Positions 48,815-56,477 of a DNA stretch of 64,000 bases are shown here, piece after piece; the stretch's first letter is position 1; each line of letters opens with the position of its first letter. The notes beneath the pieces were generated by a model that was not told where the DNA came from, searched no databases, and saw only the letters and a list, made by a program, of their open reading frames with translations. Location of the stretch: assembly GCA_019038695.1 (NCBI GenBank), contig JAHOYZ010000028.1, positions 12,492 through 76,491 of the forward strand, given 5' to 3'. Origin of the DNA: Candidatus Zixiibacteriota bacterium. GTDB lineage: Bacteria; Zixibacteria; MSB-5A5; GN15; FEB-12. Both the position numbers and the translations under genes were made by a program.

Positions 48815-49369
48815 CTACAATATATCTCGCAGCAACTCCGGTCGCGGCGATGGTATTACCACCGTGTTGACCAGCATTCCTTCCCGCGAGACAACTTCCG
48901 TCCCAGCGGCAACAGCCGATTCCACCGCGCCCACTTCACCAGTCAACGTCACAAACGCTTTTCCACCCAACGCCATCGCCAGCCGTATTTCAATCAAACG
49001 CACCTCGGCTGCTTTCACCGCCGCGTCCGCTCCTTCAATCAACGTCGCCACCGAGAACGATTCGATTATGCCGAGCGCGTCGAGTTCATCGACTTGTGTG
49101 GAACCTGACAAAGCGGGGAAAACATCCGGGTGGACATTGGGAATAATAAAGGTCTCAATGACACTCTCGGCGCCATACTCTTCCCCGGCAGCAATCGAGT
49201 TCTTTATTGCCTGAACGTCACCGGCTATGAGATTGATATATTTACCGGAACAGATCGTGCGGCTTATCACCAACTCAACGCTGGCCGCCTTGACCATCGC
49301 ATCCGCCGAGCCGATTCCTTTGGCAATCGAGCTGTATTCGATTAATCCTATCGCATTGTATTCCATCAT
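48815..49369 (-). CDS. BMC-T shell protein, PduT-like
   Basis: Two BMC domains (AIGLIEYSS; ALGIIESFS); TICSGK carries the PduT-type Fe-S Cys. Confidence 0.9.
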   Translation of the reverse strand: MMEYNAIGLIEYSSIAKGIGSADAMVKAASVELVISRTICSGKYINLIAGDVQAIKNSIAAGEEYGAESVIETFIIPNVHPDVFPALSGSTQVDELDALGIIESFSVATLIEGADAAVKAAEVRLIEIRLAMALGGKAFVTLTGEVGAVESAVAAGTEVVSREGMLVNTVVIPSPRPELLRDIL

Positions 49370-50688
49370 CAGGCCTCTATTGTAATCGCTTCGTTCACAT
49401 CAACAACCCGCCCGTTAATCGATGCGTGGATATTTGCTCCCACAGACGAGTCTGCTATTTGAGCAATCAATTGCCCTACAGTGACATTGTCACCCGGTCC
49501 TACTGTGGGTACTGAAGACGTACCCAGATGTTGTTTTAGTGGAATAATAACTCGCTCGGGGTGAACCGTATCATCGGTCCAGACAGCGGGTGTGTCATAT
49601 TGGGCCAAGCCCAGCTTGCGTGTTAATTTCTTCGTTAGCACTTTGCGATGGGCTTGCATCGGATGGGCCGCGAGCGGCCTATTGGGTGGCGTGTATTCTA
49701 TGTTCTTCAAACCTATGTTTGTCTTGGACCGAACACAGGCTTGCCTGGGGTCCAGTTCTTCCGGACAGGCATACAGCGAACAAAGATTACACTCGGAACA
49801 ATTGACCGCGAACTTGCCCCAGTAATCCTCTTTTTCTCCGGCAAATCCAAGTGATCGCATCACTTTGTGCGGCTGTATATCGTACCCAAGTAAATAGCGA
49901 GGACAATACTCGGTGCAGTAGCTACACTGATCGCACGCCGACTGGCCGATCCGCTTGATTTCCGAAATCGCAAGCGATCTTTTCCTAATGAGGTAGTGAT
50001 CTACGGGTAATACAATGTACCCCCCACTAAGCTTAGTTACCGGATTTTCAAAAGAGGGCACTCGTGCCCCCATCATTGCGCCGCCGTCGAGAACGGCAAT
50101 CTCGCCCGATATGGACGGCCCGCCAGCAAGAGCGATAACATCACTGATTGATGTCCCGATAGGCACTTTCAGTGTGACTGGATTATTAACCGCTCCCGCC
50201 ACGGTGATGAATTTCTCAGTCACCGGCACGCCGATACTGGCCAATGCTACGTTGAGCAACGTCTCGACATTGGACACGACACATCCGATATCGACCGGGT
50301 AACCACCGTACGGAATAAGTCGCCCGGTTGCTTCATAGACCAGAACGTATTCGTCACCGGCCGGATAGTGGTCGCCCATTTCAAAAATCTCAATACCGGT
50401 GCCACCAAATATCCGACGGAACTGACCGATTTGATCTTGCGCTTTTGCTTTGATCCCCAGGATACGTCGTGAAGCGCCTACGGTGTCGGCCGCGAGTTTC
50501 ATTCCTTTGTGGACTTCATCGGGAAATTGGCGCATCAATTCTTTGTCTTTATACAGCAGTGGTTCGCATTCTGCGCCATTGGCGAGTAGAACCTCTACCT
50601 GGGTATTGTACTTCAGGTGAGTAGGAAAGCCTGCCCCACCGGCCCCGACTACTCCAGCGTCACGAACTTGTTCTACAAGGGAAGGCAT
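49369..50688 (-). CDS. PduS/RnfC-like Fe-S flavoprotein
   Basis: GVVGAGGAGFPTH, NGAECEP, CDQCSYCTEYCP, CSECNLC. Confidence 0.9.
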   Translation of the reverse strand: MPSLVEQVRDAGVVGAGGAGFPTHLKYNTQVEVLLANGAECEPLLYKDKELMRQFPDEVHKGMKLAADTVGASRRILGIKAKAQDQIGQFRRIFGGTGIEIFEMGDHYPAGDEYVLVYEATGRLIPYGGYPVDIGCVVSNVETLLNVALASIGVPVTEKFITVAGAVNNPVTLKVPIGTSISDVIALAGGPSISGEIAVLDGGAMMGARVPSFENPVTKLSGGYIVLPVDHYLIRKRSLAISEIKRIGQSACDQCSYCTEYCPRYLLGYDIQPHKVMRSLGFAGEKEDYWGKFAVNCSECNLCSLYACPEELDPRQACVRSKTNIGLKNIEYTPPNRPLAAHPMQAHRKVLTKKLTRKLGLAQYDTPAVWTDDTVHPERVIIPLKQHLGTSSVPTVGPGDNVTVGQLIAQIADSSVGANIHASINGRVVDVNEAITIEA

Positions 50689-50710
50689 AGTATCAGTTGA
50701 ACCTCATGAC

Positions 50711-50875
50711 CTATAGTTCCTCAACCAGATCAGTGGCATCGCCGAAACCGAGTTGGTTGGCTCGTTCGTGCTCCCGAAGCCACCACACTATTCCCACTAT
50801 CGCCGTCACACCCAACAGGAGCCCGACGATGTGGTACCAGCGCAGATACCGCATGGCAAGTTTGATAATGCTCAT
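50711..50875 (-). CDS. 54-aa single-TM protein (not in the ORF track)
   Basis: ATG overlaps the BMC-P stop (ATGA); MSIIKLAMRYLRWYHIVGLLLGVTAIVGIVWWLREHERANQLGFGDATDLVEEL. Confidence 0.65.
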   Translation of the reverse strand: MSIIKLAMRYLRWYHIVGLLLGVTAIVGIVWWLREHERANQLGFGDATDLVEEL

Positions 50876-51198
50876 TGTAAAGCCTTCTTGAATGTTACCC
50901 GTTCCGGGTCAAGATCGCCGTTGTAGTACTCCGGTTTGATATCGTATTCATCAATGATCCCTATCACAGCCGCCTCAATCGACATATCTTCGTTGCCGAC
51001 TGCCACTCTGGCCGCCCGGCCATAAGCCACCATGACCAATTCACCTTCACCCGCACCGAGAACATCAGCGGCCACAATAGTGTCGGTGTTGGGCGCTTTG
51101 TTAAGATTATACGGCTGAATGATGAGGAACTTCGCACCGGTGGTGTTGTCTGTCTTTTGAGTCGCCCATAGTGAGCCGACCACTCTTCCAATAAACAT
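50872..51198 (-). CDS. BMC-P vertex protein (EutN/CcmL family)
   Basis: MFIGRVVGSLWATQK, VAADVLGAGEGELV, AAVIGIID. Confidence 0.93.
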   Translation of the reverse strand: MFIGRVVGSLWATQKTDNTTGAKFLIIQPYNLNKAPNTDTIVAADVLGAGEGELVMVAYGRAARVAVGNEDMSIEAAVIGIIDEYDIKPEYYNGDLDPERVTFKKALQ

Positions 51199-51202
51199 AT
51201 CT

Positions 51203-51784
51203 CTATTCCAAATCCAAAAGGTTTGATATCGCTTCTATCAGTTTCGATTTCTTGGCTTGAGAGATTTCCCGCCCTTTGAGACTCAACCCCTCTAAAGTAC
51301 GAGCATACCGTCGAAGCTCAGCGACGGTCATACTCTTCAACATCTGAGGTGTAACTTTACTCCCCGGAACATCACCTCTCGCACTGGAATCAGGTAATTT
51401 CCTTTTTCTTGAAGGACGGCCGCCACTCTGTTTAGTACCGCCTTCAGCGGCTCCCGACTCGGGATCAAGCGACGGACGGTGATCATCGGTATGATACTTT
51501 GACACAAAGCGGCGCGCAGGTAGAATTGCATCAAGACCATCGTCCGCGTTGGCAATTATCGTGACTGCCACAATTTCACCGACACGCTCCGCTGCCGCCG
51601 TCGATGCTTCGCATGCCGCCTGCACTGCTCCCAACTCACCCTCAATCCTGAGAGTGAGAAATGAAGCATCGGTTAACTCTACCGATGACACCACTATTCC
51701 GGCCGCCTTAGCGGCTGCATCGGTAGCCTCGATAGCGGCTATAAGCCCATGTGTCTCAATCAGACCCAGTGCATTTCGTGGCAT
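51203..51784 (-). CDS. BMC-H shell protein with linker and C-terminal small helical domain
   Basis: ALGLIETHGLIAAIEATDAAAKAA...GELGAVQAA; tail MTVAELRRYAR..KKSKLIEAI. Confidence 0.88.
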   Translation of the reverse strand: MPRNALGLIETHGLIAAIEATDAAAKAAGIVVSSVELTDASFLTLRIEGELGAVQAACEASTAAAERVGEIVAVTIIANADDGLDAILPARRFVSKYHTDDHRPSLDPESGAAEGGTKQSGGRPSRKRKLPDSSARGDVPGSKVTPQMLKSMTVAELRRYARTLEGLSLKGREISQAKKSKLIEAISNLLDLE

Positions 51785-51928
51785 AGTATGAAATAATACC
51801 GCATCGGATGGAAAAAGTAAATTGATTATCTATCTGATTGCGGGAAAAACACACTTGCCACTCACATTGTCGAGAAGATATCCACAATTGTGCATAATGC
51901 CACCTCGTGGTGATGCCACCTCGTGGAT

Positions 51929-51967
51929 AAAAAACGGTCACCCGTGCTCCCCTCAAGCACGGGTGAC
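51929..51967 (-). terminator. Intrinsic terminator in the BMC operon upstream region
   Basis: GTCACCCGTGCT-7-AGCACGGGTGAC-CG-TTTTTT. Confidence 0.8.
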
Positions 51968-52029
51968 AAACCGCCAAAGAGAAAAAACATTGTCCGTCTT
52001 TGAGACGGCGCTCAGGGAGTAAAATACAA
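51929..52029 (-). ncRNA. Candidate ~100-nt small RNA or attenuator leader
   Basis: Lies between a -24/-12 promoter and a strong terminator; internal CCGTCT/AGACGG hairpin; no useful ORF. Confidence 0.4.
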
Positions 52030-52039
52030 TTATAGTACG

Positions 52040-52055
52040 AGCAATCTGTGTGCCG
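52040..52055 (-). promoter_or_regulatory. Sigma54 (-24/-12) promoter candidate
   Basis: CGGCAC-ACAGA-TTGCT with correct GG-to-GC spacing; a TATAAT at 52029-52034 also allows a sigma70 reading. Confidence 0.6.
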
Positions 52056-52352
52056 TAGCCAGGGGCAGCGCCATTGAATTGCTATAACCGAGTGTTATAT
52101 AAGAAGATAACAATGCGGCCATACGGACACTGTAAGAGGTTACCATTTGCAGTTCGTACGATTGTACGAGAGGGAGAACAAAGAAAAGCGGTAAGTGCAT
52201 GATAATCACACACTTACCGCCACCAAGGAATATATGTTCACCTTCGTGCCAAAGCACGACAGGTTCATTATGTACAATGCTCACGCGCCTAATGCGACAA
52301 CAGAGCTGCCGACATTATTATAACGCTATGAACAGACTCAGCGATCAGCCGT

Positions 52353-54602
52353 TCAGTTAACGACACCTCCTTCACAGGAAATCCCGTATCTCTTTAGTTT
52401 GGTGCGAACGGTTGCCTCGTGAATCCCGAGTATCCGAGCCGCTCTGGATTTGTTGCCGCCCGATGCAAGCAACGCCTCATTTATGAGCCTCCGTTCGAAT
52501 TGCTCTACGCGCTCAAATAGAGATTTCTCACCCCGAGGTTGGTCTGCGGAAAAAATCGACCGCGACAACTCGATGAGGTCTCCTTCGGTTACCATCGCCG
52601 CCATCACTTCCAATCGTTTGATCTTGTTGACCAACTCGCGGACGTTTCCGGGCCAGTCATACTTGACAAACAGATGAACCAGTTCTGTCGGTATTTTCCC
52701 GTCATCAGTCAGACTGCATTGGCTCAGGAAGTGATTTAGCAATAACGGGATATCCTCTTTTCGTCGTTTGAGCGACGGAATGTGGAAGCTAATTCCGCTG
52801 ATTCGATAGAACAAATCACGACGGAAACTCCCTTTCTCAACCATCAGTTCCAGATTCTGGTTGGTTGCCGACACTAGCAGGATGTCCAGTTTGATCTCAG
52901 TAGTGGACCCGATTGGGATTACCCGACGAGTTTCCAGAACGCCAAGCAGCTTACTCTGCAACGAGAGTGGCAGGTCACCTATCTCGTCGAGATAAAGCAC
53001 TCCGCCGTTGGCCGAGGTCAGCAATCCCGGTTTGTCCTTGTCAGCACCCGTAAAAGCACCCTTGTGATAGCCGAACAACTCGGATTCAAGCAGAGTTTCG
53101 GGTATTGAAGCGCAGTTTACCGCCACAAAGGGACCATCGGGTCGGACCACGGAACGGAAATACCGCGCCATGTGATCCTTGCCGGTGCCAGTCTGACCGG
53201 TGAGCATCATCGGTAGATTCGAACGGCCGATTAGCGACAGCTGTTTTTTAAAGCTCTCGATCTCCGGGCAGGAAGTGAGAAACTCTGCCTTGCCGGCATT
53301 GCTGGTCGGTGCCTGATTGAGCTTATTTTGGTCGAGATCAGAATCTGTATCGGCGATCAGTCGCTGGATACGATCGACAACGTTGGTGATACCATCACGT
53401 CGATAAAACTCCTCAGCCCGGAAGAGATAGGTCAGTCGCTGACGCCGGGTGAATACTTTCGTCCGACCAGCGGCAATCAGAGTCTCCGCCTGAGCCACGC
53501 AAATACCGGATTCTGCCAACAGATCAAGCGATCTGCCATAATGATTGCGTGCATCCGACTCGTTGTCCTGAATCTCGGCAACCTGAGCTCTCAGACGCCA
53601 GAGCGCGCCAACTTCTTCGGTCACACCAGCCTTGTCCATAATGACCATAGCCCGCGCCACATAGCGCTGCGCCATCGGTAAGTTGCTCGACAAAACGGCA
53701 ACTTCGGCCAGATGCCTGAGCACACGACCGGTCAGAGTGGTCTCCGGATCGATCTTCTCGGTTATTGCCAAGGCCTGTTCAAGAATATCCCTAGCCGCAC
53801 CTAATTCGCCGGAGCGATATTTCAGTTCGCCAAGATAAGTCAGGTACATAACCTCATCGCGACGACAGTCGCATTGAACCAGTTGCTCACGAGCATTGTT
53901 GAGAGCGATTTCTGCGTCATCGAATCGGTCAGTCAGAATGTGAACATAGCCCAGCGACATATAAGCCCGGGGCAGCTCCTGAGTCTGACCGAGTTCTTCC
54001 GATAGTTCGATATTGATCTGCAAGTGACTACAGGCTTTTTCAAAATCTCCTACAAATGTGTGAATACGACCAATGTTACCCATCATGAAGGCCAGCTTGT
54101 GGCGATCATTGAGTCGACGGGCAATGTCTACTGCATCCATAAGGACGGTCAGAGCTTGGCTGAAGTCCGACTGCTTAAAAAACAGTCCGGCTAACAGGTT
54201 GAGCGCCCGACTCTGTCCCTCGGGACAGTCATTCCTGCGGAAAATTGATTCCGCATCACGAAAGGCCTTTTCCGCTTCCCTTAGTTCTCCCAGGTTGCGT
54301 AGTATCCCCCCGATTACTACAAAAGTTTCCGCCAATTCACGGCTGTCGCCAAACTCCGCCTGGAGAGTTTGAGCCGTTCGGGCGGTTCGCAACGCAACCG
54401 GGTAATCTGCGAGGGAAGCATAGGCCGTGGCGGCGAGACGCATAACTAGCGCCGCGCCCGGGCCGCCAGCACAGTCCAGTTCACTACGATTGTCCTCGTA
54501 GCAACTGATTGCGCTGGCGAAATCCCGCGAGGTAATCAATGACTCAAGATAGTGAGCCATTGCCTCGTGTATTCCACTGGCATTGTTTTCCATTTTCCTC
54601 AT
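52353..54602 (-). CDS. TPR-containing sigma54-dependent activator (bEBP, Fis-type HTH)
   Basis: N-terminal TPR-like helices; GQTGTGKD, ELFGYHKGAFTGA, LYLDEIG, WPGNVREL, GGNKSRAARILGI; no receiver domain. Confidence 0.93.
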   Translation of the reverse strand: MRKMENNASGIHEAMAHYLESLITSRDFASAISCYEDNRSELDCAGGPGAALVMRLAATAYASLADYPVALRTARTAQTLQAEFGDSRELAETFVVIGGILRNLGELREAEKAFRDAESIFRRNDCPEGQSRALNLLAGLFFKQSDFSQALTVLMDAVDIARRLNDRHKLAFMMGNIGRIHTFVGDFEKACSHLQINIELSEELGQTQELPRAYMSLGYVHILTDRFDDAEIALNNAREQLVQCDCRRDEVMYLTYLGELKYRSGELGAARDILEQALAITEKIDPETTLTGRVLRHLAEVAVLSSNLPMAQRYVARAMVIMDKAGVTEEVGALWRLRAQVAEIQDNESDARNHYGRSLDLLAESGICVAQAETLIAAGRTKVFTRRQRLTYLFRAEEFYRRDGITNVVDRIQRLIADTDSDLDQNKLNQAPTSNAGKAEFLTSCPEIESFKKQLSLIGRSNLPMMLTGQTGTGKDHMARYFRSVVRPDGPFVAVNCASIPETLLESELFGYHKGAFTGADKDKPGLLTSANGGVLYLDEIGDLPLSLQSKLLGVLETRRVIPIGSTTEIKLDILLVSATNQNLELMVEKGSFRRDLFYRISGISFHIPSLKRRKEDIPLLLNHFLSQCSLTDDGKIPTELVHLFVKYDWPGNVRELVNKIKRLEVMAAMVTEGDLIELSRSIFSADQPRGEKSLFERVEQFERRLINEALLASGGNKSRAARILGIHEATVRTKLKRYGISCEGGVVN

Positions 54603-54614
54603 CGCGTGTTACCC

Positions 54615-54983
54615 TTAATTACTGGAAGTTGTGGTCGCGGATTGTCCAATCTCCTCGTTCAAAGTACCGGTCTCCCCGGAAATATCATCTGAAATAGTGA
54701 TATCATCTTTGGGGTCATCAACGAACCAGATATTGATGATGAATTTCCACAGGAAAACATCATAGATGTTATTGCCTGCGATACAACCAAGTTCGCCTCC
54801 CCCGGATGAGGAAATTATGACCGAACCTCCATCCCAGACACTCTCACCACCCCACGGGTGGTCGTCGCCAGTTCCGTCAATTGCTCTGTATCCTTGAGGA
54901 TTCTGACGCGCTTCGGTATTACCGAGCGGAATTGCAATTAGTATCAGCACTACGGCCAATACAAAGATCAGTTGCTTCATCAC
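54615..54983 (-). CDS. Small secreted protein (candidate signalling pro-peptide)
   Basis: AGGAG RBS; signal peptide ending TEA; DDHPWGGE motif; ends 12 bp before the bEBP start. Confidence 0.7.
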   Translation of the reverse strand: MMKQLIFVLAVVLILIAIPLGNTEARQNPQGYRAIDGTGDDHPWGGESVWDGGSVIISSSGGGELGCIAGNNIYDVFLWKFIINIWFVDDPKDDITISDDISGETGTLNEEIGQSATTTSSN

Positions 54984-55088
54984 ATACTCCTTGGTTTAGA
55001 AATGCATGAACATATTTATCTTGTACAAAAACAGTCGGGGTTCGGGGTATAAGTCAGGTGGGGTTAGAATACTTAGTACCTCCACAGT

Positions 55089-55117
55089 ACGATAAGGCAT
55101 AACTACCATGCTGTCAA
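55089..55117 (-). promoter_or_regulatory. Sigma70-type promoter for the peptide-bEBP operon
   Basis: TTGACA-17bp-TATCGT. Confidence 0.5.
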
Positions 55118-55286
55118 CCTCTTTCTCTAATTCCGGAGCGAGTGGTTGTACAACTCCATGACAAACAATCTTGCATCAAAAAAGGTCAACGGCTAAGTTC
55201 AATACGAACCGAGTCTTGCTATGAGCACCCGGTAATCATACATGTGTAGTCCAAATCGTTGGACTCTGACACAGAAAGATTGCGAT

Positions 55287-56477
55287 ATGCGAACGATCTG
55301 TATTTTCATGATAGCAGCAACAGCTCTTGCAATGGTAACACTGCTTTCGTGTGGAAGTGGTGATGGTAGCGACAATAATGACGTTATTGGCGGTGGCAAC
55401 GGCGGGAACCCAATAGATCCGGACCAGATTCATCCCGGAAACGGGATTTTCCCAATTGCAGTCAGCTACGCGACGGCCAAGTACCCGTTATCTGTCTTTG
55501 CCTCTGATTTTAACGGCGATGGTGACAAAGATCTCGCTGTAGCGAGCGAACTGGGAAACAGCGTTACGATCCTGGACAATTCCGGAAATGGGACGTTTGC
55601 CTCCGGCTTCAACGTTATGGCCGGGAAAAAAGCATACTCGGTTTTTATGTCTGATCTCGACGGTGACGGTGACAGTGACTTGGCTGTCGCAAACAAGGAG
55701 AGCGACAACGTATCGATCCTAACCGGTGATGGTGATGGAACATTTGCCGTGGCTGTTAATTACCATGCGGGAAACAGTGCCTGCTGTATTGTCGGTGGTG
55801 ACCTTGACGGTGATGGAGATATCGACCTGGCCGTCGCCAATTATGATTCCGACAACGTATCTATTTTGATGAACGATGGCGATGCAACATTCGCGAGCGC
55901 GGTCAACTACGGAGTTGGTGATTACCCTTACTCCGTCGCCATCTCTGATCTGGACGGCGATGGTGACCTTGATCTGGCATCGCCCTGCTGGGGAGACGAC
56001 AAAGTTTCTGTGTTGAAAAACAACGGTGACGGAACCTTCGCTCCGGCAGCGAAGTTTGACACCGGGACCGATCCCTTCTCTATCTGTGCCGCTGATCTTG
56101 ATGGTGATGGAGATATCGACCTGGCCACCGCCAGTTACGGCTATACTGTGAATGATGTATCGGTCCTAAAGAACAACGGAGATGCAACTTTTGGTGCGGC
56201 CGTGAATTACGAAACCGGAGACAACCCACAATTCATTTGTGCTGCTGATCTTGACGGCGACAAAGATATTGATCTGGTGGTAGCTAATAAGGATTCCAAT
56301 GACATATCAGTTCTGAAGAACAACAGTAATGGAACATTTTCAGCCGCTGTCAACTACAACGCAGGCAATGGACCAAGTGGCGTGTTCGCTTCGGACCTGG
56401 ATGGTGATGGAGATTTGGATCTGGCCGTCGCCAATGCTTTGGCCGATAGCGTCTCAATCCTTATGAATGAAAAGTAG
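55287..56477 (+). CDS. FG-GAP/VCBS repeat lipoprotein
   Basis: Lipobox LLSC; about 7 DLDGDGDxDLA repeats of about 49 aa. Confidence 0.9.
   Translation: MRTICIFMIAATALAMVTLLSCGSGDGSDNNDVIGGGNGGNPIDPDQIHPGNGIFPIAVSYATAKYPLSVFASDFNGDGDKDLAVASELGNSVTILDNSGNGTFASGFNVMAGKKAYSVFMSDLDGDGDSDLAVANKESDNVSILTGDGDGTFAVAVNYHAGNSACCIVGGDLDGDGDIDLAVANYDSDNVSILMNDGDATFASAVNYGVGDYPYSVAISDLDGDGDLDLASPCWGDDKVSVLKNNGDGTFAPAAKFDTGTDPFSICAADLDGDGDIDLATASYGYTVNDVSVLKNNGDATFGAAVNYETGDNPQFICAADLDGDKDIDLVVANKDSNDISVLKNNSNGTFSAAVNYNAGNGPSGVFASDLDGDGDLDLAVANALADSVSILMNEK

Follow-up and report, generated by a model that had tools for sequence, protein, structure and literature searches.

Organization of the locus

The window analysed here, a 64,000-nucleotide stretch of DNA from an uncultivated sediment bacterium of Candidatus Zixiibacteriota, contains a spacer of 568 nt between the gene of a sigma-54 activator and a microcompartment (BMC) operon; all of the relevant genes are on the minus strand. 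The activator gene (52353..54602) encodes a bEBP of 749 aa that matches Pfam PF00158 (3e-57) together with TPR_12, TPR_MalT and HTH_8, and whose domains run, from the N- to the C-terminus, from a TPR/MalT-like region through an AAA+ sigma-54 interaction domain to a Fis-type HTH. On the far side of the spacer the operon starts with a BMC-domain protein (ATG at 51784), followed by EutN, RnfC/PduS-like, tandem-BMC, ACT and DUF711 genes as assigned by domain search.

Behind the activator gene the minus strand carries first a putative distal enhancer, UAS1 (GTCGTGCTTTGGCACGAA, 52243..52260), a match to TTCGTA-N6-TACGAA about 206 bp upstream of the -24 GG with the core palindrome TCGTGC-N4-GCACGA (52259..52244), and then a proximal one, UAS2 (CTCGTACAATCGTACGAA, 52153..52170), about 116 bp upstream of the GG with the core palindrome TCGTAC-N4-GTACGA (52169..52154). 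Between the two sites lies a terminator-like hairpin of the activator gene (52187..52221); other loci have a hairpin at the equivalent place, at about -160. The predicted sigma-54 promoter, cGGCACacagaTTGCt (cGGCAC-acaga-TTGCt; 52040..52055), has its GG at 52054-52053 and its GC at 52042-52041, exactly spaced, and precedes a predicted small RNA of about 103 nt (51927..52029) with a 5' end predicted near 52029 and a score of 97.5 bits with covariance model R1.

The RNA begins with an unpaired, U/C-rich stretch in which a sequence scan finds ACUCCCU (52020..52014), and which contains the first putative seed, UAUUUUACUCC (family consensus GUCAUUUUUACUCC; 52016..52026), unpaired in the minimum free energy (MFE) fold and complementary to GGAGUAAAAUG. 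Hairpin 1 (CCGUCU-CAA-AGACGG, 51994..52008) follows, its sequence varying between genera while its pairing is kept, and then a C/U-rich linker with a U/C-rich tract (51987..51976) and a second candidate seed, UUCUCUUUGGCG (51972..51983), complementary to UGCCAAAGAGAA. The RNA ends in an intrinsic terminator (51929..51967) made up of a stem (51967..51937) of 12 perfect pairs (13 as counted by the scan), the loop GAGGGG (51954..51949) and a U-tract (T6, 51934..51929). Past the terminator, a sigma-70-type promoter of the BMC operon (TTTACT-N17-TATTAT, 51793..51821) ends 8 nt before the BMC ATG.

A first-pass annotation of this DNA had claimed an RNA start near 52029, a CTCCCT stretch, a hairpin, a U-rich tract and a terminator about 145 nt before the BMC start; all of these elements are present on the minus strand, the start as a prediction, and the BMC ATG lies 143 nt past the end of the RNA. 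The observed set of elements far exceeds chance.

A conserved sigma-54 promoter with paired enhancers

The correctly spaced -24/-12 element that the same annotation had called is exact in the window, and its GG and GC positions are conserved elsewhere. All 29 loci compared first have GG-N10-GC, with free variation in the five spacer bases; among 69 loci, at least 60 have it, 25 nt before the start of the RNA model. The exceptions among the 69 are a variant with GT for GC, a degenerate copy, a masked stretch, and L180, L182 and L183, three loci of one sister family that have the 3' half of the RNA and no recognisable sigma-54 promoter.

The enhancers are conserved as well: the proximal TTCGTA-N6-TACGAA site is found in 29/29 of the first loci and the distal site also in 27/29, and both palindromes occur in nearly all 69 loci at about -116 and -206 from the GG (range -106 to -129 for the proximal and -192 to -219 for the distal site, matching 9-12 of 12 positions), with some lineages having them at about -106 and -196 instead. 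Because they are also found at L020 and L023, two loci of the same genus in which the RNA module lies away from the activator gene, the sites belong to the RNA promoter and not to the end of the activator gene.

An ortholog of the activator is the usual neighbour. In 63 of the 69 loci it lies immediately upstream of the RNA, co-oriented and ending 220-530 nt before it, and this linkage suggests that the TPR activator is the protein that binds the TTCGTA-N6-TACGAA sites. The window's own genome has a single rpoN (C4:44861-45337, 193 bits), and the features of a sigma-54 promoter are found together: GG/GC spacing, rpoN with an AAA+ activator, and upstream sites about 100-200 bp away.

As the first-pass annotation had cautioned, a perfect TATAAT (52034..52029) overlaps this region, and the promoter might then be an ordinary sigma-70 promoter with a coincidental GG/GC match. 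The TATAAT is real, but it is absent from the homologous loci while GG-N10-GC stays, a sigma-70 scan finds no acceptable -35 and calls no promoter at 52034..52029, and the palindromes at -116 and -206 and the adjoining activator gene fit sigma-54; we regard a sigma-70 promoter as scarcely credible.

Distribution and structure of the RNA family

When the whole 568-nt spacer was used as a DNA query against 60 relatives, 16 of them matched, mostly at query positions 326-432, which correspond to window positions 52027..51921; judged by these matches, what is conserved in the spacer coincides with the predicted RNA and extends no further. A covariance model (R1) built from 15 copies of the RNA finds one copy in the window's own genome and matches in 117 of 285 Zixibacteria genomes, with a single copy in all but two. 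The RNA is present in almost every genome of the window's family and in members of three sister families, and across the 285 genomes the model gives no match outside one order. No Rfam family, Qrr included, was matched at E values up to 1 in the 7 kb of the window from 49000 to 56000. A 40-codon frame that starts at the RNA's sole ATG (51990) was considered and rejected, as this ATG is missing from the other copies in two alignments (A1 and A2); on this basis the RNA has no conserved reading frame, as is expected of an sRNA.

Covariation supports the predicted structure. It was scored on an alignment of 69 sequences that had been fitted to the terminator and so somewhat favours it: in the terminator stem 97% of the cells are paired and compensatory changes occur in 11 of 13 pairs, whereas hairpin 1, which is only roughly aligned because its register shifts between genera, has 76% of its cells paired in this crude alignment and double changes in 6/6 pairs. 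The observed pairing values were reached by none of 500 shuffles and by no slid control. The window copy folds with its first 16 nt free (z = -3.1 versus shuffles); a long-range CGCC/GGCG helix around hairpin 1 in its MFE fold was rejected, since it is not kept in other genera.

In sequence, four stretches of the RNA are conserved: the 5' end (GUCAUUUUUACUCC), the linker (CUUUUCUCUUUGG or GGUCCUCUUUUCUUUGG), the terminator stem and the loop GAGGGG, the last being near-invariant, in nearly all 69 copies.

Relation to the microcompartment operon

The gene that follows the RNA is not constant. It is a BMC-domain gene in about 33 of the 69 loci, at 59-161 nt past the RNA in most of these and farther, up to 309 nt, in a few; elsewhere it is a short-chain dehydrogenase (SDR), a PLD-like enzyme or a small lipoprotein-like gene, and in at least six loci the next gene is on the opposite strand and convergent. 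Behind the six best-scoring copies of the RNA, the 1.5 kb that were fetched contain no BMC gene. In addition, a TTTACT-N17-TATYAT promoter ending 7-8 nt before the BMC ATG is common to about 10 BMC-bearing loci of different genera, with no Shine-Dalgarno (SD) sequence between this promoter and the ATG in these loci, so the BMC operon looks as if it has its own promoter and an mRNA that is leaderless or nearly so.

These observations bear on the attenuated leader of the BMC operon that the first-pass annotation had offered beside an sRNA. Spelled out, the BMC genes would be transcribed from the sigma-54 promoter, the RNA would be their 5' leader, and the terminator would work as a conditional attenuator, to be overridden by some factor. 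A same-strand BMC gene so close behind the RNA in about 33/69 loci speaks for it, as do some short-spacer loci in which the BMC gene has a GGGAG SD and no obvious promoter. The constant downstream linkage of an attenuator or riboswitch leader is missing, however, and the RNA sequence is conserved whatever gene follows, including at the top-scoring copies that lack a BMC gene and the loci with a convergent neighbour; the terminator stem is long and strongly conserved, with no alternative antiterminator pairing seen; and the 5' end of the RNA co-varies with a partner elsewhere in the genome (see below). As the downstream gene varies and the BMC operon has its own conserved promoter, the RNA does not appear to be a BMC leader, and as an account of its main function this reading does not stand up: we judge it very unlikely. 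Instead, the RNA has the attributes of a stand-alone sRNA gene, its own promoter and its own intrinsic terminator, and the microcompartment operon next to it is probably transcribed separately. Some read-through from the sigma-54 promoter into the BMC gene may occur, but it would not be what conserves the RNA. The interval from the terminator to the BMC start was also considered as the site of another sigma-54 promoter; this was rejected, as the TGGCAT repeats found there have no GC at the right spacing.

The predicted target: an unlinked anti-sigma gene

The reverse complement of the conserved RNA 5' end, GGAGTAAAAATGAC, reads as an SD sequence, a spacer and a start codon. Searched for in 108 genomes of the family with one mismatch allowed, it is found at the RNA gene, and many genomes have another exact match at a different place; in 18 of 20 such sites examined, this is the junction between an ECF sigma gene and its anti-sigma gene. 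The sigma factor (191 aa; Pfam matches Sigma70_r2/r4_2/ECF) has a single-copy ortholog in 100 of the 108 genomes, and is followed by a gene of about 190 aa (85 aa in two genomes) whose product starts MTC and carries the H-x3-C-x2-C zinc finger of ZAS anti-sigma factors (Pfam zf-HC2). The two cistrons are 2-3 nt apart, and in the main family the duplex spans the sigma stop codon (GGAG-TAA-AA-ATG). In the window's own genome the operon lies on contig C10 (71680..70537; anti-sigma start at C10:71103), unlinked to the RNA. Three further genes lie downstream of the anti-sigma gene.

Junctions were then fetched regardless of their sequence, and 44 genomes that have both the RNA and the target were compared. 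A contiguous RNA-target helix of at least 12 bp is found in 32 of the 44 genome pairs and of at least 10 bp in 38, covering the anti-sigma AUG in 37/44 and the SD in 35/44. Cognate duplexes have a mean energy of -23.4 kcal/mol versus -19.6 for non-cognate ones, a value as low being reached in none of 10000 permutations, although these ignore phylogeny and related genomes inflate the significance.

The complementarity is kept through changes on both sides. Where the RNA reads GUCAUUCUUACUCC the target reads GGAGUAAGAAUGAC (U-A to C-G; G014, G015, G135 and G030), and an exchange of the same type joins RNA GUCAUUUCUACUCC to target GGAGUAGAAAUGAC in G031; an RNA stretch ending in UUGCUCC faces a target beginning with GGAGCAA in G029, G147, G145 and G036 (A-U to G-C); and a double change is seen in G136 (RNA GUCAUCUUAACUCC, target GGAGUUGAGAUGAC). 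In the window's own genus, G001 and G002 pair CUUUC in the RNA with a compensatory GGAAAG in the target, and in the window's own genome a one-base deletion has occurred on both sides, with four U in the RNA and four A in the target where the consensus has five of each. As far as these comparisons go, substitutions and indels co-vary between the RNA and the target across genera, and several of the changes are independent.

A prospective test came from a sister family (f3), whose RNA has an extra G and reads UAGCUCC: the 15-mer predicted from it, GGAGCTAAAAATGAC, occurs exactly twice in each of G058 and G162, in the RNA gene and at the sigma/anti-sigma junction. Among about seven f3 genomes searched, only two gave such an exact second match, and the one-mismatch matches in the other five are unrelated genes. 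In the one genus in which 4/4 genomes lack the RNA, the junction has drifted to GGAGUAGCAAUGCU.

Pairing is weaker in some members of the family, including the window's own genome, where the helix is only 11 bp (UAUUUUACUCC with GGAGUAAAAUG) and the seed has diverged. By energy alone the anti-sigma site ranks 13th to 109th of 2418 start regions there, start regions and intragenic control windows give the same distribution of duplex energies, and an ungapped complement scan of this genome yields no useful target; because the seed has diverged and the energy rank is uninformative, it is the comparison between genomes that carries the case for this target. SD motifs occur often in the window's own genome (42% of crude starts versus 12% in the control), and a match to GGAGTATAAATGAC at C3:128670 was discarded as a chance match in a different context. 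Elsewhere, pairing is short (4-9 bp) in G017, G021, G025, G035 and G098, confined to the SD in G158 and G018, and not detected at the junction in G003, G009 and G023.

What is expected of a base-pairing sRNA is thus found in the comparison, namely a conserved unpaired seed complementary to an mRNA start, with compensated changes, in tests that ignore phylogeny. The anti-SD-like stretch pointed out in the first-pass annotation turns out to be part of this seed, with a specific co-varying target.

A second candidate target and the terminator loop

The reverse complement of the linker, CCAAAGAGAAAAGA, recurs directly after the start codon of a gene for a small protein of 57-67 aa (MPKRKE...DCWHxYxLQ), which is present in 101 of the 108 family genomes and gives no Pfam match. 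In the window's own genome the gene is at C10:26685..26509, where UGCCAAAGAGAA forms the start codon and codons 2-4; the match with UUCUCUUUGGCG has 12 pairs and ranks 51st of 2419, and the candidate targets of this genome rank only in the top 0.5-4.5% by duplex energy. Among the 44 genomes, a linker helix of 10-21 pairs forms in 41 and starts at the AUG in 28 (G-U pairs allowed). RNAs with CCUCUUUGG pair with the Arg codon AGG in 5/5 cases and those with UCUCUUUGG pair with AGA in 22 of 28; cognate pairs have a mean energy of -23.2 kcal/mol and non-cognate ones of -22.1, a value as low being reached in 45 of 10000 permutations (phylogeny again ignored). This target is weaker than the anti-sigma gene, because purine-rich Lys/Arg/Glu codons readily pair with any C/U tract, because G-U pairs were allowed, and because the genus that has no RNA keeps the same small-protein codons. 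The C/U-rich linker may in addition repress this conserved protein, as a weaker candidate.

The usual chaperone of base-pairing sRNAs is Hfq. No Hfq match (PF17209) was found in the window's own genome, which is 96% complete, and the RNA is not assigned to the Hfq-dependent class; a CsrA gene is present. For the conserved GAGGGGA loop two roles are conceivable, binding of a protein or pairing with the linker's CUC, and many genomes have a similar motif, GAGGGG(G)A, some 30 nt before the start of the small-protein gene.

The RNA might then act mainly through a protein, for example by binding or titrating CsrA via the GAGGGGA loop and the C/U-rich tracts. A terminator loop can have any sequence, so the retention of GAGGGG in nearly all 69 copies is in keeping with such a role, as are the GGA in a hairpin loop, the combination of CsrA present and Hfq absent, and the related motif in front of the small-protein gene. 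The RNA has a single GGA-containing loop, whereas the known CsrA sponges, of the CsrB/RsmZ type, carry many, and a protein route would leave the 14-17 nt of co-varying anti-sigma complementarity unexplained; as the main mode of action we think it improbable. Protein and pairing roles are compatible, and CsrA could be a helper.

Proposed mechanism and direction of the effect

We consider it likely that the locus holds the gene of a trans-acting, base-pairing sRNA of about 100 nt through which the activator represses translation of the anti-sigma gene and frees the ECF sigma factor. This reading builds on what genome comparison provides: the promoter and its enhancers are conserved, as are the RNA and its structure, the activator gene is linked to the RNA, and the complementarity with the target co-varies. 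The TPR sigma-54 activator would bind the two palindromic enhancers and drive sigma-54 polymerase from the GG-N10-GC promoter; transcription, starting near the predicted 5' end, would be ended by the strong intrinsic terminator to give a stand-alone RNA in which a single-stranded 5' end is followed by the variable hairpin 1, the C/U-rich linker and the hairpin of the terminator. With its first 11-17 nt this RNA would pair with the SD and the start codon of the ZAS-type anti-sigma gene and block initiation of translation. With less anti-sigma made per sigma, the ECF sigma regulon would become active, and the sigma-54 signal would be relayed to a second alternative sigma factor. That the TPR-bEBP has its output through an sRNA, a proposal of the first-pass annotation, gains support from the conserved GG/GC, the linkage to the activator in 63/69 loci and the co-varying seed target.

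The direction of the effect is deduced from how such RNAs act in other systems: with its SD and AUG covered, the anti-sigma gene should be translated less, and the sigma factor should be released. In the main family, however, the sigma stop codon falls within the duplex too, so that the operon mRNA as a whole may be affected: pairing at the junction might down-regulate the entire operon, by mRNA cleavage or lost translational coupling, and so act as a brake on the ECF sigma. The coverage of both the stop codon and the anti-sigma start, with cistrons only 2-3 nt apart, would allow this, and ECF operons are usually auto-activated, so that loss of the mRNA would lower both proteins. Yet the duplex is centred on the anti-sigma SD and AUG, and in a sister family the sigma gene ends further upstream while the pairing still covers the anti-sigma start; the one characterised analogue, CJnc230 acting on flgM, raises sigma activity (PMC11187230). 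A brake therefore seems unlikely to us, and release of the ECF sigma by repression of its anti-sigma factor is the direction that we prefer.

At its widest, the system could be a complete, so far undescribed cascade, fixed throughout the order, in which an exported small protein and the TPR activator lead to a two-seed sRNA that silences both the ECF anti-sigma gene and the gene of the protein of about 60 aa, without Hfq and possibly with CsrA at the GAGGGGA loop. We offer this only tentatively, as possible rather than probable. If true, the activation of an ECF sigma by an sRNA that takes away its anti-sigma factor would have no known precedent, and no earlier sRNA-target pair in an uncultivated phylum would have been defined purely from trans-covariation.

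Comparison with known systems

In Vibrio, LuxO activates the sigma-54-dependent Qrr sRNAs, and one qrr gene adjoins luxO. The first-pass annotation had likened the present locus to this arrangement, and the likeness of layout holds: a short, terminator-ended sRNA with a sigma-54 promoter and conserved upstream activator sites is encoded beside the gene of its own putative activator. The RNA itself is not a Qrr. It matches no Rfam family, occurs as a single copy per genome and has other predicted targets, Hfq was not found in the window's own genome, and the activator differs from LuxO in having a TPR/MalT-like N-terminus and no receiver domain.

Stand-alone sRNA genes under sigma-54 and a dedicated activator are also known for CrcZ, with CbrB, and for the Myxococcus RNA Pxr. 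CrcZ is a protein decoy, as is GlmY, and to our knowledge none of GlmY/GlmZ, CrcZ and Pxr targets an anti-sigma factor. GlmY and GlmZ, with GlrR, likewise come from stand-alone sigma-54 sRNA genes with a dedicated activator (PMC3045617). Neither these two nor CrcZ or Pxr has a sequence relationship to the Zixibacteria RNA, as judged by the lack of an Rfam match.

Regulatory RNAs are, as far as we know, almost unknown outside the cultivated model phyla, and in this case genomes alone were enough to read out an sRNA family together with the type of promoter, the likely activator, the enhancers and a specific target; compensatory changes between two unlinked loci back the target prediction. The proposed wiring, from sigma-54 activator to sRNA to anti-sigma to ECF sigma, would join two alternative sigma systems via an RNA and give a concrete read-out for the TPR activator of these bacteria. 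The RNA occurs in a lineage that lacks Hfq, as C. jejuni does. A full-text literature search returned no example of an sRNA acting on an ECF anti-sigma factor, which is weak evidence of absence.

The only described parallel that we found for this wiring is CJnc230 (FlmE) of Campylobacter jejuni, an RpoN-dependent sRNA that represses the anti-sigma-28 gene flgM and raises FliA-dependent expression (Konig, Svensson, Sharma 2024, PMC11187230). The relay would be the same in the Zixibacteria, as predicted from sequence: a sigma-54-dependent sRNA represses an anti-sigma mRNA and a second sigma factor becomes more active. CJnc230 is cut from the 3' end of the flgE mRNA, whereas the Zixibacteria RNA has its own promoter, enhancers and terminator; CJnc230 targets FlgM and the Zixibacteria RNA would target a ZAS-type anti-sigma of an ECF sigma, and the two belong to unrelated families in different phyla. 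The Zixibacteria RNA would thus represent an undescribed RNA family in an uncultivated phylum, with a type of mechanism that is known and a wiring that is new.

RNA module apart from the activator gene

Both other genomes in the window's genus, G001 (locus L020) and G002 (locus L023), retain the predicted sRNA with its promoter and both enhancer sites, at a position away from the gene of the TPR-sigma-54 activator; a third close relative (L035) has no RNA behind the activator gene, where a convergent gene comes next. Because two loci keep the sites at a distance from the activator gene and the third has the activator gene without the RNA, the RNA module is, on this sequence comparison, a relocated one that has retained its putative sites for action in trans.

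Divergent, duplicated and missing copies

Three loci of family f2 (L180, L182 and L183, in genomes G043, G037 and G040) still have the C/U-rich tract and the GAGGGG terminator in place behind the activator gene, and the 5' half of the RNA copy differs in all three, with no GG-N10-GC element visible upstream; either the promoter type has changed at these loci, or the model has matched only a related 3' module. Only two genomes contain two sRNA matches, namely G177, where both are weak, and G007, where both lie on small contigs (C239:41-144 and C399:1047-1150) and may reflect either a genuine duplication or a duplicate introduced in assembly or binning. One locus, L173 (G115:C1, about 991,400-991,530), was left unscored, as the promoter and the 5' part of the RNA read as N, a stretch that is masked or withheld in the record.

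The sRNA is absent from all four genomes of genus g62 (G130-G133; loci L255-L258). In these genomes the sigma/anti-sigma junction, a candidate target of the RNA 5' end, has drifted, and the anti-sigma N-terminus reads MLH or MTH rather than MTC; the small-protein gene (MPKRKE...), a second, weaker candidate target, is retained with its first codons unchanged. A comparison of start-region sequences places a GAGGGG(G)A motif about 30 nt 5' of the start of this small-protein gene in most genomes (G000:C10:26720-26700 in the window's own genome); the motif is identical to the near-invariant terminator loop of the sRNA. The own genome encodes CsrA (G000:C28:7321-7476), and no Hfq gene was found in its 96%-complete assembly.

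BMC genes behind the RNA

Directly 3' of the RNA terminator, on the minus strand, a 16-bp unit occurs twice in tandem (window 51897-51926), each time with the small palindrome CCAC-GAG-GTGG, so that CCACGAGGTGGCAT is present twice; no counterpart of this repeat was seen in other genera, and it may serve as an operator of the BMC promoter. That promoter, a conserved TTTACT-N17-TATYAT motif (window 51793-51821, minus strand), ends 7-8 nt 5' of the BMC ATG and recurs before the BMC ATG at nine further loci (L126, L131, L133, L138, L144, L148, L152, L163 and L164). Since the motif ends so close to the ATG, and no Shine-Dalgarno sequence lies between them in the window or at these nine loci, the mRNA from which the first BMC gene is translated is probably leaderless or nearly so.

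At another nine loci (L134, L031, L150, L156, L159, L165, L166, L177 and L181) the BMC-domain gene that follows the RNA, after a gap of only 59-80 nt, is more distantly related (31-38% identical) and has no EutN gene beside it. Several of them carry GGGAGC immediately 5' of the BMC ATG, which could offer the ACUCCC of the RNA an additional pairing partner.
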